DNA from: Methanomassiliicoccales archaeon
GTDB taxonomy: Archaea; Thermoplasmatota; Thermoplasmata; Methanomassiliicoccales; UBA472
NCBI GenBank assembly: GCA_028682895.1
Contig: JAJRAK010000057.1
Span: 60,516 to 124,515, forward strand
Reading direction: 5' to 3'
DNA length: 64,000 nt
This document shows, piece after piece, positions 2,048 through 37,481 of the stretch. Position numbers and translations under genes: made by a program. Position 1 is the stretch's first letter. Each line of letters opens with the position of its first letter. The notes under the pieces were generated by a model. The model ran no database searches and had not been told where the DNA came from. It saw only the letters and a list, made by a program, of their open reading frames with translations.

Positions 2048-4894
2048 TCACACCTTTCCTTTCCGCAAACGCATCACCGATATCACGGCTACGATTACCA
2101 AAGCTATGGCTATTATTCCTACCATAATCAACATTGTACTATCGTTCTCAGAGCCTGGGGTGTCGTCATCGGGTAGAGGAACGGTTATAGAGGCCGTAGA
2201 AGAATTCTCGCCCTCACCGACCGCGTTCACGGCACTTATCTTGTACCAGTATGTCTGGCCGTTCGTCAAACCTGTATCAGTATAGATCAGGACTGAGGGC
2301 GACGATATCAGTTGATAAGTTCCATTAGAGGTCGTAGACCGATACAGCTTGTAACCAGTTATCGGACTGCCCCCGTTATTGGTCGGAGCGGTCCAGGTTA
2401 AGATCACCTGGGCATTGCCGGCGACAGGATCGAGGTCTTCGGGCGTTCCAGGGACCGTTGATGCGAATTCGAGAAATACACTGATCGGTGAACAATTCTC
2501 ACCCTCACCAGCCACGTTCACGGCGCTGATCTTGTACCAGTATGTCTGACCGTTCGTCAACCCCATATCAGTATAGTTCAGGACCGAGGGTGACGATATT
2601 AGCCCATATGTGCCGTTAGAGGTCGTTGACCGGTATACTTTATATCCAGTGATAGGGCCCACACCATCGCTAGCTGGGGCAGACCAAGCCAGATTTACCT
2701 GGTTGCTACTGGCGATAAGGGTCAGCCCCTGAGGGGCTCCGGGAGCCATCGATGCGTATTCAAGGAACACACCAACCGGCGAACAATTGGCCCCCTGACC
2801 GATCGCATTCACAGCACTTACTTGATAATAATAGGACTGATTATTGCTCAGGCCGGTGTCTGTATTGTTTAAGCCGGATAGCGATGCTATGAGACTGTAT
2901 GTACCACTTATCGTGTATGATCGATATATCTTGTAGGCAGTGATCGGACTGTTTCCGTCGATGAACGGCGCCTTCCATGTCAGATTGATCTGATCGCGGT
3001 CGGCGACAAGAGCAAGGTCCCGCGGGATCCCAGGGACGGTAGGCTGCGATGATGGGGTTGCGTTGACCGGAGTGCAATTTGCGCCCTCGCCGACCGTGTT
3101 AACCGTGCTAACCTTATACCAGTATATTTGATCGTTGATCGCATCTGTGTCAGTACAGTTCAGACCTGAGGGTGACGATATCAGCTCAAATATGCCGTTG
3201 GAGGTCGTGGACCGATACACTCTATAGCCAGTGATCGGGTCTCCTCCATCGTTGGCCGGAGCGTCCCATGTCAGGGCTACCTGGGCATTGCCGGCGACAG
3301 GAACGAGGTGGTCAGGGGCTTCAGGGACCTCGGGATCGAACGCGAGGAAGGTGGCGACATATGTGCAATTGGCCCCCTCGCCGGCATCGTTCACAGCACT
3401 GACCTGATAGTAATAGGACCGGTTATTGGTCAATCCAGTGTCTGAGTAGTTCATATCTGAGGTCGAGGCGATGAGATCGAACGGACCATCGAATATCGTT
3501 CTCCTGTATACCTTATAGTTGATGATCGGACTTCCACCATCGCTGATAGGAGCAGCCCAGGTCAGATCGACCTGTTTACTGCTCGAACTTAAGTGAAGGT
3601 CCTGCGGGGCTGTAGGGACTGCGGGCTCTGAGGATACCATTACGATGATCGCAGTGCAATTATCGCCCTCTCCGATCGCGTTTTCGGCGCTTACCTTGTA
3701 ATAGTATTTCAGCCCGTTCGTCAGCCCGGTATCGGTACAGTTCAGAACTAAAGGCGATGAAATCAAGGTAAAGGGGCCGTGGGATGTGGTGGACCGATAC
3801 ACATGATAGATGGTGATGTCACTTCCACCGTTGCGGTCGGGGGCATTCCACGTTAAAAGAACTTGAGCAACGCCCGGATAGGCGAGAAGGTCCTCAGGAG
3901 CCTCTGGAGCTGTTTTAACAAGGTATGAACCCATCTTCAGCCCGTTCCAATTGAAATTAGGCATGGGGAAGTTCGAGCCCGAATAGGCGTGACCCCTTAC
4001 CCCCGCCGGCGTATCCACCATCCAATTTTCATCTACAGATGTTGGGGCAACGAAACCTAGGAAATTTATCGAGGTCAAAGCAATGCAGGACTGGAACACC
4101 TGGCCTTGGATGGTCGTAACGCTACTGGGTATGGTGATGGAGGACAATGCAGTGCAGCCAAGGAATGCCGCTGAAGCAATGGTCCCGACCTTATCACCGA
4201 TATTCACGGAGGTTAAATTGATGCAATGCTGGAATGTATACTGGTCGACCTTTGTGAGGTTGTCGGATATGTTGACCGAGCTGAGGTTGGTACAATATTC
4301 AAAAGCATACCATCCGATCGTACGAACGCTGTCGGGAATAGTGATAGAGGTCAGGGCGGTGCAGTGAGAGAATGCATATTTGTAGATCGTTTTTACACTA
4401 TTGGGAAGGGTGATCGATGTCAGATTTGTGCATTGTTCGAACGTGTTGTACCCTATCGTTAGAACGGTGCCAGATGAGTCGAAGTGCACTGATGATAACG
4501 CTGAACAGTGCCAGAACATAGTGGTACTGATAACCTTGACATCGCTGGGAATATTGATCGAAGTAAGATTGTAACAACTGGCGAACGCACCAAGCCCGAT
4601 CGATGTGACGCTATTGGGGATGACCACAGAGGTCAGTGAGGTGCAGGTATCGAAGGCAGAATCGCCTATGGCCATGACCGTATAACCATCCAATGTGGAT
4701 GGGATGGTTATCGCTCCCCCTGTGCCATTATATCCTGTGATAGTTGCGACGAGCGGACTTCCGCTCGTGGAGTAAGTATAGTCCCCTTCTGTTGCGGCGT
4801 CGACTGTGTCGGTGGAAACAATGAAAAATCCGCTTGATATCAGCATGAATACTAATACCGCAGTTATCCTGAATGACCACTGTCTTTTTTCCAT
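2048..4894 (-). CDS. Large secreted/cell-surface protein: signal peptide, BspA-type leucine-rich repeats, six tandem fibronectin type III domains, C-terminal TM anchor
   Basis: The N-terminus MEKRQWSFRITAVLVFMLISSGFFIV is a signal/TM segment. Repeated ...CTSLTSVVIPNSVTSIGLGAF.SC.NLTSI.IP... units are BspA/LRR_5-like. Six roughly 95-aa units (AP.AP.DL......QV.LTW.AP..DGGSPIT.YKVYRST...G.Y.LI...).NYTDTGLTNG..Y.YKVSAVN.GEG) are Fn3. The C-terminus MLIMVGIIAIALVIVAVISVMRLRKGKV is a TM anchor. Start set at the ATG at 4892-4894, preceded by a G-rich RBS. Confidence 0.8.
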   Translation of the reverse strand: MEKRQWSFRITAVLVFMLISSGFFIVSTDTVDAATEGDYTYSTSGSPLVATITGYNGTGGAITIPSTLDGYTVMAIGDSAFDTCTSLTSVVIPNSVTSIGLGAFASCYNLTSINIPSDVKVISTTMFWHCSALSSVHFDSSGTVLTIGYNTFEQCTNLTSITLPNSVKTIYKYAFSHCTALTSITIPDSVRTIGWYAFEYCTNLSSVNISDNLTKVDQYTFQHCINLTSVNIGDKVGTIASAAFLGCTALSSITIPSSVTTIQGQVFQSCIALTSINFLGFVAPTSVDENWMVDTPAGVRGHAYSGSNFPMPNFNWNGLKMGSYLVKTAPEAPEDLLAYPGVAQVLLTWNAPDRNGGSDITIYHVYRSTTSHGPFTLISSPLVLNCTDTGLTNGLKYYYKVSAENAIGEGDNCTAIIVMVSSEPAVPTAPQDLHLSSSSKQVDLTWAAPISDGGSPIINYKVYRRTIFDGPFDLIASTSDMNYSDTGLTNNRSYYYQVSAVNDAGEGANCTYVATFLAFDPEVPEAPDHLVPVAGNAQVALTWDAPANDGGDPITGYRVYRSTTSNGIFELISSPSGLNCTDTDAINDQIYWYKVSTVNTVGEGANCTPVNATPSSQPTVPGIPRDLALVADRDQINLTWKAPFIDGNSPITAYKIYRSYTISGTYSLIASLSGLNNTDTGLSNNQSYYYQVSAVNAIGQGANCSPVGVFLEYASMAPGAPQGLTLIASSNQVNLAWSAPASDGVGPITGYKVYRSTTSNGTYGLISSPSVLNYTDMGLTNGQTYWYKISAVNVAGEGENCSPISVFLEFASTVPGTPEDLDPVAGNAQVILTWTAPTNNGGSPITGYKLYRSTTSNGTYQLISSPSVLIYTDTGLTNGQTYWYKISAVNAVGEGENSSTASITVPLPDDDTPGSENDSTMLIMVGIIAIALVIVAVISVMRLRKGKV
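2100..3900 (-). repeat. About 290-bp tandem coding repeats (six copies) encoding the Fn3 domains of the surface protein
   Basis: Near-identical DNA segments, for example cttgtaccagtatgtctg[g/a]ccgttcgtcaa at about 2230 and about 2530. The protein shows six Fn3 units. Confidence 0.7.
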
Positions 4895-5350
4895 ATTGAA
4901 TTCCCCCCACTGTCCATTATAATTCAAATGAGTTGACATTATCATTGTTTAGAGGAGACTATAAGACTATGCTGTCGAAAAAATTCTACGAAATCAATCA
5001 ATCAAGGCCAATTCATGACGAAAAATCTGCTTAAAGTTTGCCATAAGAACTCTTGCATTCCATACAAGATTCCTGTGCAAGAACAGCGCGAGTGCCGTAA
5101 AAAGCTCAGCAACAACCCACTGGCCTGATCCTTTCATATCGACGGGTCCATCGATAATCATCGAAGAAACGATCGATGCGGACCATAATAGGTACGGTGA
5201 CATGACGATGTTAGTACTGGCATGTAAAATGAATGTTGGGCCAGCTCTGGTAATTTTTTATAAGTCTTGCATTGCATGGATCCTTTCCTTTTGTGTCAAT
5301 CAAAATAAACATATATTACATGTCATCTTATGGTGATAATGGTGATATAG

Positions 5351-7605: not shown

Positions 7606-10563
7606 TCACTTCTGCTGCTCGGTCTTCTTCTCCTTATCCTCACGGCCGATCCGCTGCAGCTTGCCCGGGGCCCACCATGCTTTCTTTCCCATGACGGTGA
7701 GGGCCGCCGGCACGATATACGTCCTGACGACCATCGCGTCCAGTAGGACCGCCACGGTAAGGGCGAAACCGAACTCCTGCAGCATGGCGTTGCTGGACAG
7801 CATTAGCGCGCCGAACGCGCCGCACATGATGATGGCCAGGGCGGTGATGATACCGCCGGTCCAGTCGGCCGCGGTGATGATCGCGTCCTTGATGTCCTTG
7901 CCCTTGTGGATCTCCTCCTTTATACGGGTGAGGATGAACACGTTGTAGTCCATTCCTATGCCCATCAACATGACGAAGAGGATGAGCGGGATGATCCACA
8001 GGACGGGCAGGCTCAACCAGACACCGAACACCAGATAGGTGAGGGCGAAGGCCCATGTTATGCTCATGGCTATCGAGAGGACCGCGAAGGCCGGCAAGAG
8101 TATGGAACCGAGCACCAGCACCAGCACTATGAATATGCCAATGACCACCAGTATCTCGATGTTGGTGAACTCCGATGATGTGCTCTGGCTCGTGTCATAC
8201 AGTGCAGCAGTGGTCCCGCCGACCAGTATCTCGGACCTGTTCAGCGCGGATTCCTGACCTACCTCGGCAGCCAGCATTTCCCTGAGCTCGGGGATGAAGT
8301 CCACCGCGCCCAGGCTCTGGGGCTCCTCGCTCAGCACCACGGTGAATAGCAGGCTCGAATTGTCCTTGCCCAGGAAGGAAAGCATGCCTGATAGAAGCTG
8401 TTCCTGCTCGCTCTCGGACATAGAGCTGATATTGCGATAGTCTACGGTCTCACCATATGGACGTGTGATACTGGTGACCTTTCCGACCTCGGACTCTTCG
8501 GCTATGGCAGCGGTCACGTTCTCCACGGCGTCCAGATACTCGTTGTTGAACGTCCCATTGTAGATGGCTACATCGCTTACGAGCACCACCTGTGTTGGCG
8601 ATATCGCTCCGGCACCGAAGTCATCGGTCATGACGACCATGCCCTCGATGCTCTCCGAGTTGCCCATCACTCCGATGAAGTCGAAGCTCGTCTCGGCCGT
8701 CACGTAAAGGTAGGTGGACGGAATGGTCATCACGATAGCGATCGTCAGCACTACCTTGGCGTGCTTGACAGAGAAGGTCGCGGCCTTGTGGAAGTAGTTG
8801 CGGTGACCGTCGTTCCTCTTGGCGTTCGCTTTGGCTACGAACGTGTCCCACCGCTTGCCGGTGGTAGGCCAGAACATCCTGTTTCCAACGAGCATCAGTA
8901 TCGATGGCACGAGGGTCAGGGCGACCAGCAGGGCGATGACGATGGCACCGCTGATGATCAGGCCCATGGACTGTACAAGGGCGTAGTTCGCTGTGGCCAT
9001 GGCCAAGAAGGCGATGATCACTGTGGAGGCACTGGTCGCGACCGACTCGCCTGCCCACATTATGGACGTATGCACTGCGTCCTCCCTGTTGGCCCCCTTC
9101 ATGCGTTCCTCGCGATAACGGGTGACGATGAAGATGGAATAGTCAGTACCGACCCCCATCAGCAGTGCGAAAAGCATGGTGGATATCATGTAATTGACGT
9201 CCATGACCGTGCATGCCAGCACATAGATCATTGCTTGGCTTACACCGACAGCTACACCGACCGCACCGAGAGGCAGGAATTGACCGACGAGGGTCCTGAA
9301 CATATATCCCATCAGGACGAGTATGACGATGATGGTGATCGGTTCGATCATTACCATGTCATTAGCGGAGCTTTCCTCGAGGTCGCTCGATATTGCCGCT
9401 GATCCGGTGACGTACGTATCAACATCATATCCAGTTGCATCAGTGGTGTCACTGATGATGGACCTTATATCTGACACGGCATCGACGAGCGGATAATCGC
9501 CATCGTCCGTGACGTACTCCGCGTCAATGCTGAAGGACAGTACCATTAGCATCGTCTTGTCACTGGGGGAGACGAAGTTGCTTAGGAGCGAGTTGGGGAT
9601 CGCTACTGGATAGGAACTTATGGTCTCATTGGCGACGATGGAGCTGACATAGGCCGCCACCACGGTCTCGTTGAAGTCCGGACCGAGCTCGTAGACGTCC
9701 TGCAGGAAGGTATCGTTGCCGATGCCGGCCATGCTGGCGATCGTCTGCATGGTGACATTATGGATCAGGGTCTGATCGGAAAAGGTCTGCAGATTGAAAG
9801 CACTGATGATGCTGCTCATGAACGCCTTCTCAGTATCATCTACAGGAAGGACCGCGATGAAACTTTCAGAGCCGACGGAAATGGCGTTCTGGCACCTGGT
9901 CGCGGGGTTCGCGGTCAGTGTCGCATTGGTGGCGGTAGAGTTCCAGACGGCCATGTAGGACTGATAATAACCTAGGGCGAGCGCCTGCGTCTCGGTGTCC
10001 AACGAGGCGAGTTGCGTCTGCAGCTCGGCGGTCGTCATCGAATACGCCTGCTCGTCCCTGACGGTGACATTGTCACTGCTGTTGGTATTAGCAGTCCACA
10101 TGTACAGATGGGAGGCCGGGATGCCATACAGTAAGGAGGCGGTCAGGTTGACGTTCTCCTCCAGAGCGTACATCGAAGGACCTAGCTCTGAGATTGTCAG
10201 GCCCAGGATCATTGATGAATAGGAATAGATGGACGAGACGCTCTCCAGATACTCCAGGTCCCCATCCTCCAGTTCCTGTTGTAGCTTCAGGATATAATCC
10301 CTCGCTTCTGCGTCCGTCATGTTATCGGACTGGAGCACTATGAGGATAGTACCATTGGACACTGAACTTTGAAAATTCTCTGTGATTATCTCTGTCACCT
10401 GCGTGGACTCGCTGTCCCCACCGGACGACATATCGGAATCATAGCTCACAACATCGTTGAGCGACAGCATCGCTGGAATGCTCACTAGAAGGGCGATGAC
10501 CCATATCACGATGATGAGCTTGTACCTCTTTGTGACGATTTTGGCCAACCTATCGAATATCAT
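7606..10563 (-). CDS. MMPL/RND superfamily membrane transporter
   Basis: About 985 aa. Two 6-TM bundles, each followed by a large extracytoplasmic domain. Start set at MIFDRLAKIV (ATG 10561-10563), preceded by GGAGG. Confidence 0.7.
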   Translation of the reverse strand: MIFDRLAKIVTKRYKLIIVIWVIALLVSIPAMLSLNDVVSYDSDMSSGGDSESTQVTEIITENFQSSVSNGTILIVLQSDNMTDAEARDYILKLQQELEDGDLEYLESVSSIYSYSSMILGLTISELGPSMYALEENVNLTASLLYGIPASHLYMWTANTNSSDNVTVRDEQAYSMTTAELQTQLASLDTETQALALGYYQSYMAVWNSTATNATLTANPATRCQNAISVGSESFIAVLPVDDTEKAFMSSIISAFNLQTFSDQTLIHNVTMQTIASMAGIGNDTFLQDVYELGPDFNETVVAAYVSSIVANETISSYPVAIPNSLLSNFVSPSDKTMLMVLSFSIDAEYVTDDGDYPLVDAVSDIRSIISDTTDATGYDVDTYVTGSAAISSDLEESSANDMVMIEPITIIVILVLMGYMFRTLVGQFLPLGAVGVAVGVSQAMIYVLACTVMDVNYMISTMLFALLMGVGTDYSIFIVTRYREERMKGANREDAVHTSIMWAGESVATSASTVIIAFLAMATANYALVQSMGLIISGAIVIALLVALTLVPSILMLVGNRMFWPTTGKRWDTFVAKANAKRNDGHRNYFHKAATFSVKHAKVVLTIAIVMTIPSTYLYVTAETSFDFIGVMGNSESIEGMVVMTDDFGAGAISPTQVVLVSDVAIYNGTFNNEYLDAVENVTAAIAEESEVGKVTSITRPYGETVDYRNISSMSESEQEQLLSGMLSFLGKDNSSLLFTVVLSEEPQSLGAVDFIPELREMLAAEVGQESALNRSEILVGGTTAALYDTSQSTSSEFTNIEILVVIGIFIVLVLVLGSILLPAFAVLSIAMSITWAFALTYLVFGVWLSLPVLWIIPLILFVMLMGIGMDYNVFILTRIKEEIHKGKDIKDAIITAADWTGGIITALAIIMCGAFGALMLSSNAMLQEFGFALTVAVLLDAMVVRTYIVPAALTVMGKKAWWAPGKLQRIGREDKEKKTEQQK

Positions 10564-27473: not shown

Positions 27474-28733
27474 CTATCCCTCGTTGTTGTCGATGATCCC
27501 GATTACGTCCAAGGCGTCCACGGTGCAGGGGACCCCTAGCATCTCGGAGAGATTGGGTTCCGTTCTGCCTTCATCCCCGTGAACGAACTCCTTCACATAG
27601 GTGCCGGACTCTGTGCGAAGGCGCAGCGTCATCTTGTCATCCTGGAATTCCTCCAGGACCACATAGACGATGTACCGTTCGCGCTTCAGGTCCGCACGCC
27701 TGTGGGCCACCCTAATGGGCGTCCGCTGGACTATACGGGTTCTGTTGAACGTGCGAAGCACATCATCAACTGCACCCTTATTAACTTTACCGTGAATGGA
27801 CACCTGCACCCGGTACTCCTTGTCGGGCGTGGCGTCCTTGACCTTGCGCACCTCTTCTCGCGAGGACGTGCGCAGGCCTTCCACCTCTACCAGTTCCTTG
27901 CTCTTCTCGTTGATCTCCTTCTCCAGAGCGGGAAGGTCCAAGGCACGCGTCACCGGGGAGCTTATCTCGATGACGAACGGACGCCCTGTGCCGAGCATGC
28001 GGGCGTCGATGTCCTCCCGGCCCATGCCGTGGAAGAAATGCTCCTTGGCCTGGGCGTACGGCAGTATGACGTCCCCGACCTGCTCTTGCACGCTGGTCTG
28101 GTACATCTTTCCGGTGTTGCCGCAGCGCGGGCATCCCTTCCCTTGGCACATGCGGCATGGCCATTTGGTCTGGGGTATCTCCCGTGAGAGCTTGCGATAG
28201 CGACCGTAGATGAAGAGCGGAGCGACGTCCAGCTCCACGTGGGCGAAGCGGGTGTCCAGCAGAGCGACCACCTGCGGGTTCTTGAAGTCCACGTCCTTGG
28301 AGGTGATGGCGTAGACCGCCTTGCCTATCTCCCGGTTGAGCTCGGACTTGATAGGCTCGGCGAACTCCTGTCCGACCAAGGACCACAGCTCCTCCTCGCG
28401 GGACTGGACCACGGGGTCGACACGCGTGCCCACCAAGAAATTATCGTAATGGACCTCCTGAAGTTTCAGTGCCACGGCCTCGGCGAAGCGCGGGACCTGG
28501 TCGAAGATCTCATCGCACACGGAGCACCTCTGGTGCACCATCGGGCCTAGCCCCCTCGCCGCCCTGTCCTCGTTGATGAGCAGGCGCAGCTCGGCCCCCC
28601 GGCGCTCGTCCGTCGTTCCCGTACCGACGTGGGCGAACGGTCTTCCCAGGCAATGATCGCAAAGGTCCTTGTCCTGGGCCTTGAGAGCCTGCTCTAGCAC
28701 TTCCTTCATGGTCGGCCGACCTACCTCTTTCAC
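27474..28733 (-). CDS. pus10: tRNA pseudouridine(54/55) synthase Pus10
   Basis: N-terminal Zn-ribbon (CDHCLGR...CSVCDEIF), THUMP-like region and C-terminal pseudouridine synthase domain. About 419 aa, typical of archaeal Pus10. Confidence 0.75.
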   Translation of the reverse strand: MKEVGRPTMKEVLEQALKAQDKDLCDHCLGRPFAHVGTGTTDERRGAELRLLINEDRAARGLGPMVHQRCSVCDEIFDQVPRFAEAVALKLQEVHYDNFLVGTRVDPVVQSREEELWSLVGQEFAEPIKSELNREIGKAVYAITSKDVDFKNPQVVALLDTRFAHVELDVAPLFIYGRYRKLSREIPQTKWPCRMCQGKGCPRCGNTGKMYQTSVQEQVGDVILPYAQAKEHFFHGMGREDIDARMLGTGRPFVIEISSPVTRALDLPALEKEINEKSKELVEVEGLRTSSREEVRKVKDATPDKEYRVQVSIHGKVNKGAVDDVLRTFNRTRIVQRTPIRVAHRRADLKRERYIVYVVLEEFQDDKMTLRLRTESGTYVKEFVHGDEGRTEPNLSEMLGVPCTVDALDVIGIIDNNEG

Positions 28734-28848
28734 CTACATAAAATATTGTCAAGGACGTGACGATGAACGATCTAGTGTTGCATGTAGAAAAAAGGATTAT
28801 CCAGTTGGACCAACATCATCTTCTGTGCCAGGCAGACATCCCCCTCTT

Positions 28849-29622
28849 ATGCGCCAATATATGATGTTCGTTGACATCAGAGAGAAAGCATCAAAGACTG
28901 GTAGGATAGATCTGAGCGCGATTGGTTTCTTTACTCCTTCGAACCTCTTACCGATCTTGATCTTCATAAGGAAAGCACCACCTGGAATACCGATAGTGCC
29001 TCCTGACGACCCTAACGTCAATTCTTATCTGTGGTATATGCAGAGTGACCTTGGTGCGGAGAACAGGAATAAACAAAATTATCTCCCAGTCGTAAGCCTC
29101 CCGAAAGTGGAATCGGAATGCGCACCTATTCTGAATAAGATCTATGACCTTGGAGAGAATGCTGGGGGTAAAAACGCTTTCAGATATCTTATCGGAGAAC
29201 TCGTTGATAACATCTATCAACACTCGCTGTTCAAGAACGCCTTGATCATGGTCCAAAAATACCCAAGGAATGAGGAGATGCATCTTTGCATAATTGATGA
29301 TGGTATTACCATCCGTGGCAGTCTGGCCAACGCAGGAATGATTCTTGATGATGACCAGGCGATAATTGATGCTATCCAAGGAGCTTCTTCAAAGAATGAT
29401 GATGAGAGAGGTAAAGGGCTTGGGTCCAGTATGAAATTGCTGACCGAAGGATACCGTGGAAATGTGCTTATTTTATCTGGAGGAGGAGCTGTACATTATG
29501 ATGAGGAAGGAGCCATGAGATATCTTTTATCTGACATGTATAAATATGAGGGAACTATGATAAGCATGATAATCCCATTAACAACCGCAGAGGTGAACGT
29601 CTTTGACTATGCAGATTTATAA
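28849..29622 (+). CDS. GHKL-superfamily ATPase/kinase (RsbW/SpoIIAB-like HATPase_c) with novel N-terminal region of about 100 aa
   Basis: N-box ELVDNIYQHS, G1 box CIIDDGITIRGS, G2 box ERGKGLGSSMKLL. Lies in a local GC trough (about 42% against about 58% background). The upstream part of the supplied ORF (28669-28848) overlaps pus10 and is unlikely to be coding. Confidence 0.6.
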   Translation: MRQYMMFVDIREKASKTGRIDLSAIGFFTPSNLLPILIFIRKAPPGIPIVPPDDPNVNSYLWYMQSDLGAENRNKQNYLPVVSLPKVESECAPILNKIYDLGENAGGKNAFRYLIGELVDNIYQHSLFKNALIMVQKYPRNEEMHLCIIDDGITIRGSLANAGMILDDDQAIIDAIQGASSKNDDERGKGLGSSMKLLTEGYRGNVLILSGGGAVHYDEEGAMRYLLSDMYKYEGTMISMIIPLTTAEVNVFDYADL

Positions 29623-29917
29623 GGTATCTATTGCGAAAGAGCTGTCCCCAGATCTGGCATTGAGAGATGTTGCATCTTCGTTCATGAACAAAATGGCGAA
29701 CGTTGATTCTGACGAGGTCGAGATCGATTTTGAAGGCGTTGAGTCCATCACTCGTTCGTTCGCACATGAATATCTCACGCGGAAACGCGCCATGACGATC
29801 ATATTGAGCGAGGTCAATGTTCCAGCCAACGTCCGTAAGATGTTCGCCATCATCCAGAACTCCGAGATGAGACCCAGGTTCGATGCACTGCGCAACGCCC
29901 CCATAATTAAGATCTAG
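29603..29917 (+). CDS. DUF4325 / STAS-like small protein (putative antagonist partner of the adjacent GHKL ATPase)
   Basis: 104 aa. ...SDEVEIDFEGVESITRSFAHEYLTR...ILSEVNVPANVRKMFAII resembles STAS/anti-sigma-antagonist-like DUF4325. Overlaps the GHKL gene's end by about 20 nt. Confidence 0.55.
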   Translation: MTMQIYKVSIAKELSPDLALRDVASSFMNKMANVDSDEVEIDFEGVESITRSFAHEYLTRKRAMTIILSEVNVPANVRKMFAIIQNSEMRPRFDALRNAPIIKI

Positions 29918-30022
29918 TCGGGACGTGAACGAGCAGGGTCGATGGCCCTATCATCGCCCTCATTTTCTTAACATGCAAAAGAGCTTAATCCCCTGGGCAT
30001 CATCACCGTCCCGGAAAGACCA

Positions 30023-33152: not shown

Positions 33153-35261
33153 CTAAGAGGTTTGAGCCTCCTTTTCACTGGCCTTCCGGGTCTCCTCCGC
33201 GGCCACCTTCTGCGTCAGATAGAGGGTCAGGACCTCTCCCAGGTTCCCGCTCTCACCGTTACCGGAGACGAGCGTGTCCGGGACGATCTTGATCTTCCCT
33301 TGTGCGATAGCTTCGATGATCTTCAGCCGGGTGATGTTCTCCCTGCCCATGGCCTCGACCTGAGCACGGAACGCATCGGCCATTCCTTCTCCGACCGCCT
33401 TCTGGGAGTACGCCTCGGACTCACCGACGTTCCTGATACGGGACGCCTCCGCCTCACCGAGGTACTTGACCTTCGATGCGTCCGCCTTTCCGGTCATCTC
33501 GGTCTTCACCGCCTCCGCCTCACCCATGTACCGGACCCTCATCGCGTCCGCCTTTCCGGTCATCTCGGTCTTAGCGGCCTCGGCCTCGGCGATGGACTTT
33601 ATCTTCAGTGCCTCACCTTCGGCCATCTTCTGCAGCTTGTAGCTCTCCCCTTCGGCCAGGATCATGTTGTATGCTTTGTCCCCTTCCGCGGTCTTCCTTC
33701 TCGCGTCGGCCCTGCTCTGCTCGATCTCGATGGATAGCTTCGCGGCCATGACCTCGCCCTGCTTGTCGGCCTGAGCGGTCTTGGAGATGACGTCCTTCCT
33801 CATCTCCTGAGCCTCTGCCTGCTTCTGGAACTGGGCCAGCTGCTGTTCCGCGATCTCCTTGTCCGTCTGGGTCTTCATCAGCTCCGGCGGGGCCAGTATA
33901 TAGGACACCAGCAGGTTCTGGGCCTCGACGTGGTACTTGTCGAACTCCAACCTGGCCGTGTTCAATGCCTCCTCCTGCAGCCTGGTCCTGCTCTTGATGA
34001 ACTCGATGGCCTTCTCGTTACCGGCCTTGTTACGGAAGGATGAATCGATCAATGGGTGGACGATCTGCTGGATCAGGTTCTCGACCGAACCGAACCTGGC
34101 GATGACGAAGGGCGCGTTCTCCGGCCGGATGCGGATGATCATCCTCACGTCCACGTCCAACGTGAACGCGTCAGAGCTGGTGACCTTTAATTGGCTGAAC
34201 TTGAAGAAGTCGTCCCCCTTCTGGCTCTTGTCCGAGTCGCCCTTCGCGGACATCTCGGCGGCCCAATCGATGGTGATGGCGCTGGTCGGCACCAGGTACG
34301 GTGTGAAGGCCAGCGGGTTCAGGTTGTACTTTCCCGGGGCTACCGGCTCCCTCCATATCCCGCGGACGTTCTTGTCGGTGATGAGCAGCGTCTCCGCATC
34401 CTCGTGCACCGGCGTCGCGATGTCGTCCGATCCGGTATTGCGGCTGGGGAATCCTTCCTTGGACTCCAGCTCCACGCCTATATTGGACCGGATGACCGCC
34501 ACGTACCCGGGGGGCACCTCCTGGATCTTAACTGGCTTGACCGAGAACAAAAGGGGATTGATGTAATACACCCCGGGCTGAAGCGATTCCTGCTGCGTCC
34601 CTCTGAATCCGCCGGAGTCTAGGAACGCCTGCCCGTCCGTGAAGTGCTTGTGGGTCTTTGCGTTCAAAAATTTTTCAGAGGTCACCTCGGACGGCGTCGG
34701 TGCGATCAGGTAACCTGAAGGAAGCGACTGACCGTCCTCTGCTATGACGACACCTATCATCTCCGCATCGATCTTGGTCGCCTTGCTAACGGTGACCATG
34801 AACGCGCTGGTGTTGATACGGTATACACCGGGCCTTAGTATCGCGACCTGCGGCCCCTTCATCCCGCCGTTCTGCAGGAACATCTTGGCGTCCTGGAAGT
34901 TGTTGCTCTCGATCTCGTCACCCAGGACCCGGCCTTTCTGCATCGGCCTGCCATCAATAGCATTGACCACGCCTATCGAGTCCGGTCCGATGAAGACCAC
35001 GTTGACCTTCTCGATGGTCCATATGAACGGCATCCTCCAATAGAGACCGGGCATCAACGTGTCCGCCTGGATACCTACCTCGCCATCAAGAGCGATTATG
35101 TGTCCCTGTGGCATGGTCTTTCCGAACATCTTCTTTCGCTTGATCCCTACCTGGTCATCTTGAATGAGATACAATCCAGCGTAGACAAAAAAGGCAGCCA
35201 CTACTATTGCTATTACGCTCACGATGAACAGCGCATCTGTTAGAAATCCTAAACCAGACAT
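33153..35261 (-). CDS. Flotillin-like SPFH/band-7 domain protein with N-terminal TM and long coiled-coil tail
   Basis: 702 aa. N-terminal TM, SPFH core, then a long E/A/K-rich heptad region (AEAEAAKTEMTGKADA... repeats). Confidence 0.7.
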   Translation of the reverse strand: MSGLGFLTDALFIVSVIAIVVAAFFVYAGLYLIQDDQVGIKRKKMFGKTMPQGHIIALDGEVGIQADTLMPGLYWRMPFIWTIEKVNVVFIGPDSIGVVNAIDGRPMQKGRVLGDEIESNNFQDAKMFLQNGGMKGPQVAILRPGVYRINTSAFMVTVSKATKIDAEMIGVVIAEDGQSLPSGYLIAPTPSEVTSEKFLNAKTHKHFTDGQAFLDSGGFRGTQQESLQPGVYYINPLLFSVKPVKIQEVPPGYVAVIRSNIGVELESKEGFPSRNTGSDDIATPVHEDAETLLITDKNVRGIWREPVAPGKYNLNPLAFTPYLVPTSAITIDWAAEMSAKGDSDKSQKGDDFFKFSQLKVTSSDAFTLDVDVRMIIRIRPENAPFVIARFGSVENLIQQIVHPLIDSSFRNKAGNEKAIEFIKSRTRLQEEALNTARLEFDKYHVEAQNLLVSYILAPPELMKTQTDKEIAEQQLAQFQKQAEAQEMRKDVISKTAQADKQGEVMAAKLSIEIEQSRADARRKTAEGDKAYNMILAEGESYKLQKMAEGEALKIKSIAEAEAAKTEMTGKADAMRVRYMGEAEAVKTEMTGKADASKVKYLGEAEASRIRNVGESEAYSQKAVGEGMADAFRAQVEAMGRENITRLKIIEAIAQGKIKIVPDTLVSGNGESGNLGEVLTLYLTQKVAAEETRKASEKEAQTS

Positions 35262-35466
35262 TTTGACCTCCCCCGCCGCGATATTTTTTTATCATATATT
35301 TATAATAAATCCCAGTGACTTTTTAATAAAAAATAATATATTAATTGATGTTGATTAATTTCAATGGAGCACTTTCACGCATATCCAGTAAAATATTTGT
35401 ATGTGTTAATAAAATAAAAATTGCATTAAAACTTTTATTGTATGATACGAAGGACGAGTCGGAGCT

Positions 35467-36204
35467 CTATGCTATCATCCTTACCGCGAACCTATCATCG
35501 CGGGCGGTTAGATCGAGAGCTTCTTCACTGGTCAGATGTGATTTCGCCACGTTCTTGAGATGCTTACGACATGCCTTGACCACTGCCGTCATCTGTTCGT
35601 CCGTGGGGCGGGAATAAGTCTGCCCTGGAACTGGGATGTACCCCATGATGTGGAATGGGATGTTGACGTCTATGCTTGCTATCCACTCGGCCAGCGACTC
35701 GATCTGATCTGTGTCCACATATCCTGGGATGTAGACGATGTTGGCCTTCATCCTCATGCCGGAACATACCGCTGCCTCGAAATTCTGATAGATCAGTTCC
35801 TTTGGCCTTCCAGTGTAGTCCAGGTGCACCTGTTCGTCCCAAGCCTTGATGCCGACGTTCGCGCCATCGAGATTAGGAATGGGCAATTGACTGCCGTTGG
35901 TATGCCCCAGGAAGGTCGCGGCGCCAATCTCGTTCTTAATGAACTCGAGCATCTCAGGCAGTTCCTTTGAGCAGGTCGGTTCTCCTCCCATGAAATATAC
36001 CGTATCGACCGACACGGACTGAAGTGCCTTCTTCATCTCAGGTACGGTCAAGAACCGCTTGGGTTTGGGATATGACAGTCCCGGGGTCCCATTCGCACCA
36101 CTGCGCAGTTTGTAGCTACATATGGCACAACGGAAAGTGCAGCCATAGTTGTGAAGCGTAGCAAAACGATATTTTTCGTTGTATGTGATGCTGTGGAATG
36201 ACAT
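35467..36204 (-). CDS. Radical SAM protein (activase-like, PflA/QueE-type)
   Basis: CTFRCAIC (CxxxCxxC) and FMGGEPT are radical SAM activase-like motifs. Confidence 0.65.
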   Translation of the reverse strand: MSFHSITYNEKYRFATLHNYGCTFRCAICSYKLRSGANGTPGLSYPKPKRFLTVPEMKKALQSVSVDTVYFMGGEPTCSKELPEMLEFIKNEIGAATFLGHTNGSQLPIPNLDGANVGIKAWDEQVHLDYTGRPKELIYQNFEAAVCSGMRMKANIVYIPGYVDTDQIESLAEWIASIDVNIPFHIMGYIPVPGQTYSRPTDEQMTAVVKACRKHLKNVAKSHLTSEEALDLTARDDRFAVRMIA

Positions 36205-36389
36205 GTACTTCCCCTGAAAATTTATTATTTACAGTTGAAATAGATCTTATGGAAAATGTGAGTAGGAAGAAAAATATAAAAATGTTACGAAAACAAAAAC
36301 CAGATTGCCATATAGAAAAAGGATTCTGGAAGTTGCCTTGAGCTGGCATCGCGCATGCGTTTATGGTTATGTCCGATCGGTATGATCGC

Positions 36390-37481
36390 TCATTTTTTCT
36401 TTCGAGCCTTACCGATCGCGTCCGCAGCTAGCATAGCATCGAGCACTTTTTTGGGTGATATCGCACCTGCCTCGTGATGGATCGGCTGACCGGGGGCGCA
36501 TGCTCTTTCCGCCGCGATCATCACCCTTTCTCTGCTGGCGTCTTTCAGCCCGATGTCCGCCAGCGTGGTCGGAAGGCCGACCTTCTCGCAGAATGAGCAT
36601 ACGGCCTCGATCTCCTCAGATGGGGCTTTTGTGAGCTGGAGTCCGGCCAGCACGCCGAAGGCGACCTTCTCGCCGTGGTAGAAAGAGTGGGTCTCCTCCA
36701 ATGCGGTCAGACCGTTATGGATGGAATGGGCCGATGCCAATCCAGCACTTTCGAACCCCAGCCCGCTCAGCAGTATGTTCGCCTCGACGATGCGATCGAA
36801 TGCGTTCGTCACAACCCTGTTCTCGCTGTCGACCTTGGCCTTTGCACCGTGCTCCATCAACGTCTCAAAACATAGTTTGGCGATGTGAAGTCCCGCCGCG
36901 GTGCCATATCCACCGCACTCGTTCGCCGAGTGCGTTGCCTCGCATGACCGAGCCTCGAACCATGTTGATAGCGCGTCCCCCATGCCGGCCACTAGGAAAC
37001 GTGTCGGCGCCGCCACGATTATGTTCAGATCTACCAGTACCGCCGCTGGGTTCATCTTCTGATAGTATACCGATTCGAACGTTCCTTCGTTCGAGTACAA
37101 TACTGCGCATCCGCTGCACGGTGCATCGGTGGAAGCGATGGTGGGGACGACCATCACAGGTATGCCCATCATATCAGCGGCTATCTTCGCCGTGTCGATG
37201 GTCTTGCCGCCCCCCATGCCGACCAGCACCTTGACCTTCTTTTCATGGATGATCTTCGATATCCGAGCTATCTCATCTTTACAGCACTCACCGCGGAACG
37301 GTTCAGTGTTGATATTATGAGAATTCAGGTCCAGACCACATTCGGGAAGCACCTTTTGGATCACCGTGGGAGAGGCCAATATTAGCCCCTGTCCACCGAG
37401 CAGATCGACCAGTGATGGCAGTTCACCGATTGCTCCGACGCCTTGAATGTACTTACCGGGAAAGACCGCCTTCTTGAACAT
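36390..37481 (-). CDS. Glycerol dehydrogenase / iron-containing alcohol dehydrogenase family (COG0371; could be GldA or G1P-dehydrogenase-like)
   Basis: LVGMGGGKTIDTAKIAA is the GGGKTIDTAK fingerprint of GldA-type dehydrogenases. The His metal ligands are conserved. Confidence 0.65.
   Translation of the reverse strand: MFKKAVFPGKYIQGVGAIGELPSLVDLLGGQGLILASPTVIQKVLPECGLDLNSHNINTEPFRGECCKDEIARISKIIHEKKVKVLVGMGGGKTIDTAKIAADMMGIPVMVVPTIASTDAPCSGCAVLYSNEGTFESVYYQKMNPAAVLVDLNIIVAAPTRFLVAGMGDALSTWFEARSCEATHSANECGGYGTAAGLHIAKLCFETLMEHGAKAKVDSENRVVTNAFDRIVEANILLSGLGFESAGLASAHSIHNGLTALEETHSFYHGEKVAFGVLAGLQLTKAPSEEIEAVCSFCEKVGLPTTLADIGLKDASRERVMIAAERACAPGQPIHHEAGAISPKKVLDAMLAADAIGKARKKK

Follow-up and report, generated by a model that had tools for sequence, protein, structure and literature searches.

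The closest described relatives of the locus considered here are CapK-CapS and VapKSC, a set of signalling systems described as bacterial (Chambers et al., EMBO J 2026; PMC13373217). CapK, which consists of a helix-turn-helix (HTH), a STAS and a GHKL domain, is switched on by single-stranded DNA (ssDNA) that arises during DNA repair, and it phosphorylates Ser54 of the repressor CapS, a STAS domain joined to a winged helix-turn-helix (wHTH); the pair is located upstream of CBASS, Bub and Thoeris operons (Chambers et al., 2026). For VapK, a STAS-GHKL protein, the proposed target is Ser48 of VapS (a STAS domain with a short tail), whose phosphorylation would release the PIN-domain toxin VapC, and the vapKSC operon protected E. 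coli against phage Bas42 (Chambers et al., 2026). Phosphorylation has been shown for CapS S54 and for SpoIIAA S58, and the text of that paper mentions neither DUF4325 nor a two-gene form, while "archaea" appears there only in a cited title (Chambers et al., 2026). A cassette of two genes, here called K and S, lies in a 64,000-nucleotide stretch of contig JAJRAK010000057.1 from a Methanomassiliicoccales archaeon (the whole stretch is hereafter the window). It is probably a self-contained, horizontally exchanged phospho-switch of the CapK-CapS/VapK-VapS type with a conflict- or stress-type role, as judged from sequence and from analogy with these systems.

K shares with VapK both its domain layout, a predicted STAS-like domain followed by a GHKL domain with no HTH, and homology along the full length of the protein, although the two are only ~17% identical. 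When the K profile was compared by hhalign with a VapK-family alignment built from database homologs, the match had a probability of 96% and an E-value of 4e-9 over 236 collinear columns, pairing residues 14-257 of K with 36-295 of VapK, a span that reaches across the N-terminal domain and the kinase alike. An hmmsearch gave 19-31 bits for the same relationship; the Cap and Vap sequences were taken from the machine-read text of the paper's appendix, in which small errors are possible. The N-terminal 100 amino acids of K, which the original prediction had called unrecognisable, align with the STAS-like sensor domain of VapK. Here the K motif LDLSxxxxF(Y)PTxLLPL pairs with FDFSxCxFLRPNAVAFLGG of VapK, and F27 of K (codon 28927-28929), a position at which the aligned homologs shown carry F or W, stands opposite the invariant F49 of VapK. 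This aligned aromatic residue is the only feature of K with a bearing on ssDNA-dependent activation, and it may correspond to the residue numbered F54 in the paper. Another residue of this domain, Y60 (codon 29026-29028), is invariant or nearly so.

K is predicted to combine this small N-terminal alpha/beta (STAS-like) domain, which occupies all of the ~87 residues that precede the GHKL domain, with a C-terminal SpoIIAB-like GHKL serine-kinase domain. The predicted fold of the latter is a Bergerat alpha/beta sandwich of the GHKL type, and in a fold comparison of the predicted structure the kinase domain is nearest to SpoIIAB and RsbW and has no transducer domain, which bears out the earlier description of an RsbW-like GHKL protein. 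The three Bergerat motifs named at that stage (N-box, G1 and G2) were likewise recovered (Table 1). E117, D120, N121, D150, G152, R187, G188 and G190 are invariant in homologs down to 32% identity, and E117 and N121 of the N-box are invariant in 29 sequences. Since its residues are invariant across homologs, the ATP site of K is intact. The G1 box reads DDGITI, with the last glycine of a DxGxG-like box replaced by threonine or serine, and G2 has the form ERGxGL. Some K homologs carry a weak precomputed match to PF02518. Sequence searches of the PDB with K, as a single sequence and as a profile, gave no match, and a fold search of BFVD returned generic GHKL proteins only. PADLOC and NCBIfam contain no model for K or S, and the sole PADLOC match was a local one to DrmA. 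In that match, positions 139-244 of the PADLOC model PDLC02567 "DrmA" (1750 positions) cover residues 110-215 of K (29176-29493) with an E-value of 5e-9, which suggests that some DISARM DrmA-like proteins may have a K-like GHKL module near their N terminus.

The second gene supports the same relationship. S exceeds the cut-off of Pfam DUF4325 (PF14213) with 30.3 bits against 23, a match that covers only positions 5-37 of the 64 in the profile, and VapS matches the same family with 62.7 bits. In the PDB, the S profile matches VapS itself best (9z7o_A, E 0.0095). S and VapS are both DUF4325 proteins of about 105-116 amino acids, encoded directly after the kinase gene, and both have a conserved serine at the start of STAS helix 2. 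As a control, the locus of a VapK homolog in E. coli continues with a DUF4325 gene and then a PIN gene; a tblastn search of plasmids with a VapS fragment gave no match. Among 29 sequences R21, F43, S52, Y57 and E70 of S are invariant, and the motif around Ser52 is (I/V)DFxGVxSI[ST]RSFAHEY. Together with the Pfam match, the invariant serine upholds the earlier assignment of S as a DUF4325/STAS-like partner, and Ser52 is the predicted phospho-acceptor. Hidden Markov model (HMM) alignments put Ser52 in the same register as CapS S54 and SpoIIAA S58, and the CapS segment EGIVATDSS54FPRE aligns with EGVESITRS52FAHE of S. The register with VapS differs in that its proposed phosphoserine, S48, falls one residue before Ser52. 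S is a single domain without a wHTH, and no Pfam match to an HTH was found in its 104 amino acids.

Although these similarities place the cassette close to VapKSC, there are several differences between them. The cassette has no VapC/PIN gene or other conserved third gene, its range is archaeal and viral, whereas the published VapKSC set is described as bacterial, and the C-terminal helix that blocks VapC belongs to VapS and has no demonstrated counterpart in S. With CapK-CapS the cassette would share its logic, in which a STAS domain forms part of the GHKL kinase and a STAS protein is the substrate; the N-box signature E...N...[DEQ]HS is common to K, CapK and VapK. However, K lacks the N-terminal HTH and S the wHTH, and sequence similarity between K and CapK is confined to the region from the N-box to G1 (14.8 bits). 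Unlike capK-capS, the cassette does not lie upstream of an immune operon: the next gene encodes a Fer4 protein, and the downstream genes vary among loci. As this Fer4 gene is also present at sites without the cassette, it is a host gene. Likeness to the SpoIIAB-SpoIIAA and RsbW-RsbV pairs lies in the fold of the kinase domain, but K has an additional N-terminal domain, its profile scores only -0.4 bits on SpoIIAB, and the cassette, found in an archaeal host, includes neither a sigma factor nor a PP2C gene.

True members of the family with the same two-gene layout (269.6 bits with the K profile and 102.9 bits with the S profile) are ORFB/ORFC of psiM100 and MTH315/MTH316 of Methanothermobacter. 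ORFB and ORFC belong to the "inserted fragment IFa" annotated in psiM100, a prophage of Methanothermobacter wolfeii; the psiM100 record itself notes similarity to MTH315/MTH316. These relatives differ from the window's cassette in being ~33% identical to its K, in lying in a provirus and in being annotated only as hypothetical. IFa (L180, 4379-7171) consists of the K-S pair and the start of the 492-amino-acid ORFD, three 125-bp tandem repeats lie ahead of it, and the pair sits between the early genes and the terminase.

K is strictly associated with S. S lies directly 3' of K on the same strand, usually with an overlap of 14-29 nucleotides (nt). In the first searches K was followed by S at 34 of 35 loci, the one exception being at a contig end, and in IMG/VR the same order was found at 79 of 80 loci, the exception stopping 3 nt past K. 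Strict pairing wherever the downstream DNA extends agrees with the kinase-partner arrangement proposed in the original prediction. In the window the overlap measures 20 nt, with the start of S inside the end of K, as stated earlier along with the two protein sizes, and this overlap suggests translational coupling. For K, homologs P0002, P0003 and P0012 start at the position equivalent to ATG 28849, while the NCBI model of the identical protein from a metagenome-assembled genome (MAG) begins five codons later, at 28864, and has 252 amino acids.

The pair is widely but sparsely distributed. When each species was represented by a single genome, a pattern scan matched 23 of 185,579 species genomes, all of them archaeal, from Methanomassiliicoccales, Iainarchaeota, Nanoarchaeota, ANME-1/Methanophagaceae, Halobacteria, Nanohaloarchaea, Nitrososphaerales, Nitrosopumilus, Micrarchaeota, Thermoplasmata, Methanobacteriaceae, Methanothrix and the archaeon HR04. 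A homolog from Syntrophoarchaeum came from a protein search, and the pair is present in at least 14 archaeal lineages. At E <= 1e-30, an exhaustive profile search of 1.84 billion cluster representatives gave 416 clusters; at E <= 1e-10 the number was 1,900.

Viruses and a plasmid also carry the pair. IMG/VR contains 127 matches to it, the largest group being the Bacteroides gut phage BF1-TP2, in which K is gp43 and S is gp42, downstream of the endolysin. The order K then S is found as well in psiM100, in BF1-TP2, on a Halobaculum plasmid and in Methanothrix-like contigs, where S is uncalled. On the Halobaculum marinum megaplasmid (NZ_CP119990.1; L182, 7805-8098) S follows a hypothetical K gene and is missing from the gene table; its motif reads SRSV in place of SRSF. 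The paper on Francisella phage KIRK describes a 293-amino-acid protein followed by a 112-amino-acid DUF4325 protein between cI and the integrase, a likeness by description only. Terminase genes resembling those of psiM lie near the pair at three further loci (L034, L036 and L037). At the first of these, in a Methanobacteriaceae MAG (8717-9705), three short open reading frames (ORFs) upstream of the pair resemble the psiM100 terminase large subunit and look like a degraded psiM-like provirus.

The history of the chromosomal slot shows that the cassette is accessory. On one side of it lie pus10 and the genes for L21e, rpoF, DUF655 and ksgA, and on the other side the Fer4 gene, as the original prediction had it (there as an Fe-S gene). 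Five other Methanomassiliicoccaceae loci hold the pair in the same slot between pus10 and the Fer4 gene; their flank proteins share 68-94% identity with those of the window, compared with only 53-58% for K and S. A scan of metagenomes with Pus10 recovered 13 loci of close relatives (Pus10 83-89% identical) in which the slot is empty and the Fer4 gene abuts pus10 at a distance of ~80-90 bp, together with occupied loci and one locus with S only (L131; Ga0247841_10000019, 4494-5001), with K cleanly deleted and ~100 bp between S and pus10. On the Pus10 tree, loci with and without the cassette are interspersed. Comparison of the two states places the insertion between an AT-rich box on the pus10 side (cataaaatattg) and a GTTAAC...AAAGTGCTTAATCCC box on the Fer4 side. 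The cassette is flanked by no integrase, no transposase, no tRNA and no convincing target duplication, and a search for target-site duplications and terminal repeats gave only short repeats that are probably due to chance. An imperfect GGACGTGA(A)CGA repeat seen by eye on both sides of the cassette was rejected as an insertion signature, as no counterpart was seen at the L120, L129 and L131 junctions.

Both genes are maintained. The ratio of nonsynonymous to synonymous divergence (dN/dS) is 0.07-0.16 across the two, with 0.07-0.10 for S, so K and S are under purifying selection. The synonymous divergence (dS) of the cassette does not follow that of its flanks: between L014 and L015 it is 0.23-0.25, compared with 0.57 for pus10 and 0.78 for the Fer4 gene, while between L013 and L014 it is 1.4, compared with 0.13-0.51 for the flanks. 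This mismatch indicates allelic exchange at the slot besides gain and loss. Protein divergence of the cassette roughly tracks the flanks. A fast-evolving but vertically inherited cassette was rejected as the whole story, as its dS lies below that of the flanks in one pair and fourfold above in another. In two Methanomassiliicoccales MAGs (L016, 10000-10773, and L017, 10001-10769) K is frameshifted close to its N terminus beside an intact S; K of L016 also has an in-frame stop. These defects may be real decay or MAG assembly errors.

In base composition the cassette (1069 bp) stands out, with a guanine-plus-cytosine (GC) content of 0.444 against a window mean of 0.564 (standard deviation 0.038, same-size windows), the lowest value in the 64 kb. 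Its tetranucleotide distance (z = 4.2) is equalled nowhere else in the window, and the AT-rich trough noted at the outset holds. GC at third codon positions is 0.44 in K and 0.62 in S, compared with 0.70-0.81 in 12 neighbouring genes; since the deficit is at third codon positions, the anomaly is one of codon usage and not of amino-acid content. In every GC-rich host, the same-slot hosts included, the GC content of the cassette falls 0.07-0.13 short of that of its flanks, and in AT-rich hosts the two match. Because it is seen in every GC-rich host, the trough is a family trait and not the mark of a very recent arrival, and recent acquisition was rejected as the explanation of the low GC. The horizontal acquisition originally proposed therefore survives in part: the cassette is accessory, exchanged and carried by viruses and a plasmid, but it is neither recent nor unique to this genome. 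Neither K nor S has a paralog elsewhere in the window.

The features of the cassette are listed in Table 1. A terminator-like hairpin, CGATGGCCCTATCATCG, with a T-rich run (29940-29965) begins 23 nt past the stop codon of S.

Table 1. Features of the K-S cassette, in window coordinates.
Feature	Position	Strand	Description
Gene K	28849-29622	+	257 amino acids; VapK-like; ORF spans 28669-29622; start ATG 28849 backed by homologs
N-terminal domain of K	28849-29109	+	residues 1 to ~87; helix-strand repeats; motif IDLSAIGFFTPSNLLPIL
K N-box ELVDNIYQHS	29197-29226	+	E117, D120, N121, Y123, H125, S126 invariant
K G1 box IIDDGITIRGS	29290-29322	+	D150, G152 invariant
K G2 box / ATP-lid ERGKGLGSSM	29404-29433	+	R187, G188, G190, L191 invariant
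Gene S	29603-29917	+	104 amino acids; single STAS-like domain (DUF4325, VapS family); TTG start, ATG at 29609
S Ser52 codon	29756-29758	+	invariant serine; predicted phospho-acceptor
Left intergenic region	28734-28848		divergent, common to pus10 and K; left insertion boundary, presumed promoter
Right intergenic region	29918-30022		right boundary; hairpin 29940-29965, then conserved Fer4 promoter box

Elsewhere in the window, the other strongest GC and tetranucleotide outlier, comparable to the cassette, is the 5' third (~4000-4900) of a gene (2048-4945, minus strand) for a predicted 965-amino-acid surface protein that has a C-terminal membrane anchor and whose repeats are leucine-rich-repeat-like and Fn3-like. 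Two AT-rich stretches (GC 0.38-0.43) at 35000-35600 and 36000-36400 bracket a 245-amino-acid radical-SAM-like gene (35467-36204, minus strand); the former separates it from a 702-amino-acid SPFH/flotillin-like gene (33153-35261, minus strand) and the latter from a 363-amino-acid gene (36390-37481, minus strand). ARAGORN places a tRNA-Leu(CAG) at 1919-2003, while an Rfam scan of the whole window at gathering thresholds, the tRNA family included, returned zero matches.

No effector is encoded in the cassette. An all-against-all BLAST of the ORFs within 4 kb of the cassette at 28 loci revealed no conserved third gene, and a tblastn search with VapC gave no match (E <= 1), either in the window or in any of 182 loci. 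Neither a sigma factor gene nor any other conserved neighbour accompanies the pair at the 28 loci, though no search was aimed at PP2C; the original statement that neither accompanies the pair consequently stands for the sigma factor, and for PP2C only as far as the lack of a conserved neighbour goes. As there is no VapC, no conserved third gene and no HTH or wHTH, the unit is a bare kinase-substrate pair. The neighbours of the pair differ among loci, with metabolic or housekeeping genes numerous among them; the pair also occurs in a mobile-looking region rich in ORFans and near a HicB antitoxin and DNA methylases. The association with mobile elements is clear, but that with known defence genes is suggestive at most, and the link to defence islands drawn at the outset is reduced to a modest one, with few defence genes near 12 archaeal loci.

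By analogy with CapK and VapK, a stress or infection signal would lead K to phosphorylate Ser52 of S. The signal may be ssDNA bound between the two K domains, as for CapK and as proposed for VapK, and phosphorylation of Ser52 would change the binding partner of S, or that of K once it is freed from S. Without a VapC toxin or a DNA-binding output domain, the output would have to be exerted in trans, on a protein of the host or of a virus, or else lie within K and S themselves. The population genetics and the viral carriage argue for an accessory conflict-type module, serving defence, superinfection exclusion or addiction, and not for a housekeeping function. The original description of the pair as being of unknown function has accordingly narrowed, as this kind of system has a characterised relative in CapKS/VapKSC (PMC13373217).

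Several observations weigh against a conflict- or stress-type phospho-switch. K scores 17.7 bits against Pfam HATPase_c, under the cut-off of 26.4, so that of the two family assignments originally made only that of S passes its Pfam threshold, although the predicted fold of K is clearly GHKL. The ssDNA trigger is borrowed from relatives that are ~17% identical, and the cassette encodes no effector. Its position beside core translation genes is long-standing in several Methanomassiliicoccaceae. Finally, the association with defence is weak: among 124 neighbouring ORFs at the 12 archaeal loci, most are metabolic or housekeeping, with only one type I restriction-modification system, two DNA methylases and one transposase (ISL3).

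A more specific version of the phospho-switch, which is possible and is put forward tentatively, is a toxin-antitoxin or abortive-infection system in which K is itself the effector, phosphorylating essential host or viral proteins or sequestering a target in the way that SpoIIAB does sigma F, and S is its pseudosubstrate or antidote; an effector acting in trans would then be unnecessary. The lack of a conserved third gene and of a VapC homolog at any locus is consistent with such a role, as is the compact, overlapping bicistron carried by proviruses and a plasmid. The decay is also asymmetric, with K deleted and S kept at L131 and K broken beside an intact S at L016, while K without S was never found; such cases, however, number only two or three, and those of L016 and L017 may be assembly errors. 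The order of the genes, K before S, speaks against K as the effector, and in VapKSC the kinase is the trigger and not the toxin.

It is unlikely, though worth setting out, that the pair has no part in defence and instead regulates, in trans, a programme of a virus or of its host, for instance as a DNA-damage sensor that times induction or lysis in temperate viruses or as the regulator of a distant host operon. CapK is activated by ssDNA from DNA repair (PMC13373217), and the positions of the pair in temperate viruses are those of regulatory or moron genes: in psiM100 it separates the early genes from the terminase, and in BF1-TP2 it comes after the endolysin. The KIRK proteins between cI and int would add a third such position, but their likeness rests on description and not on sequence. 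Against regulation of this kind, the one STAS domain that makes up S offers no DNA-binding domain, and many chromosomal copies have no provirus nearby.

An ordinary RsbW/RsbV-like partner-switching stress regulator belonging to the core physiology of Methanomassiliicoccales, for which the place among translation genes would be meaningful, is disfavoured and has a very small probability. The nearness of the fold to SpoIIAB and RsbW, the strong purifying selection and the occupation of the same slot beside pus10-L21e-rpoF-ksgA in several related species would all fit a host regulator. However, 13 close loci do without the cassette and intermingle with occupied ones on the pus10 tree, its dS is at odds with the flanks and its codon usage is atypical, and no sigma factor gene lies alongside. 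Its occurrence is moreover patchy, in 23 of the 185,579 species genomes over many archaeal phyla, with viral and plasmid copies besides. A decayed, functionless remnant of vapKSC after loss of the toxin would account for the missing VapC gene that defines the characterised relative, but it is effectively refuted by dN/dS of ~0.1 in both genes, by catalytic and acceptor residues that are invariant across lineages ~32% identical, and by conservation of the two-gene form in 416 clusters (E <= 1e-30), archaea, bacterial phages and a plasmid.

Compared with the systems of PMC13373217, the phospho-switch proposed here adds an effector-less two-gene architecture, an archaeal range, and carriage by both archaeal and bacterial viruses. 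The kinase-STAS core exists as a free-standing, strictly paired unit without a toxin or a DNA-binding output, and the signalling logic of kinase and STAS partner would thereby be extended to archaea and viruses. The long-unexplained "IFa" insertion of psiM100 holds a K-S pair, and the many pairs of "ATP-binding protein + DUF4325" now annotated as hypothetical gain a concrete hypothesis. A bolder proposal, held with low confidence, is that the effector-less K-S pair may be a complete system, common to archaea, phages of bacteria and archaeal viruses, in which a kinase activated by ssDNA or damage either serves as the effector or governs a conserved target in the host. If so, K-S would be a minimal abortive-infection or exclusion module, or a LexA-independent damage sensor for the induction of temperate viruses, and would represent the first archaeal switch of the CapK/VapK type, as well as the first with an output other than a neighbouring toxin or operon.

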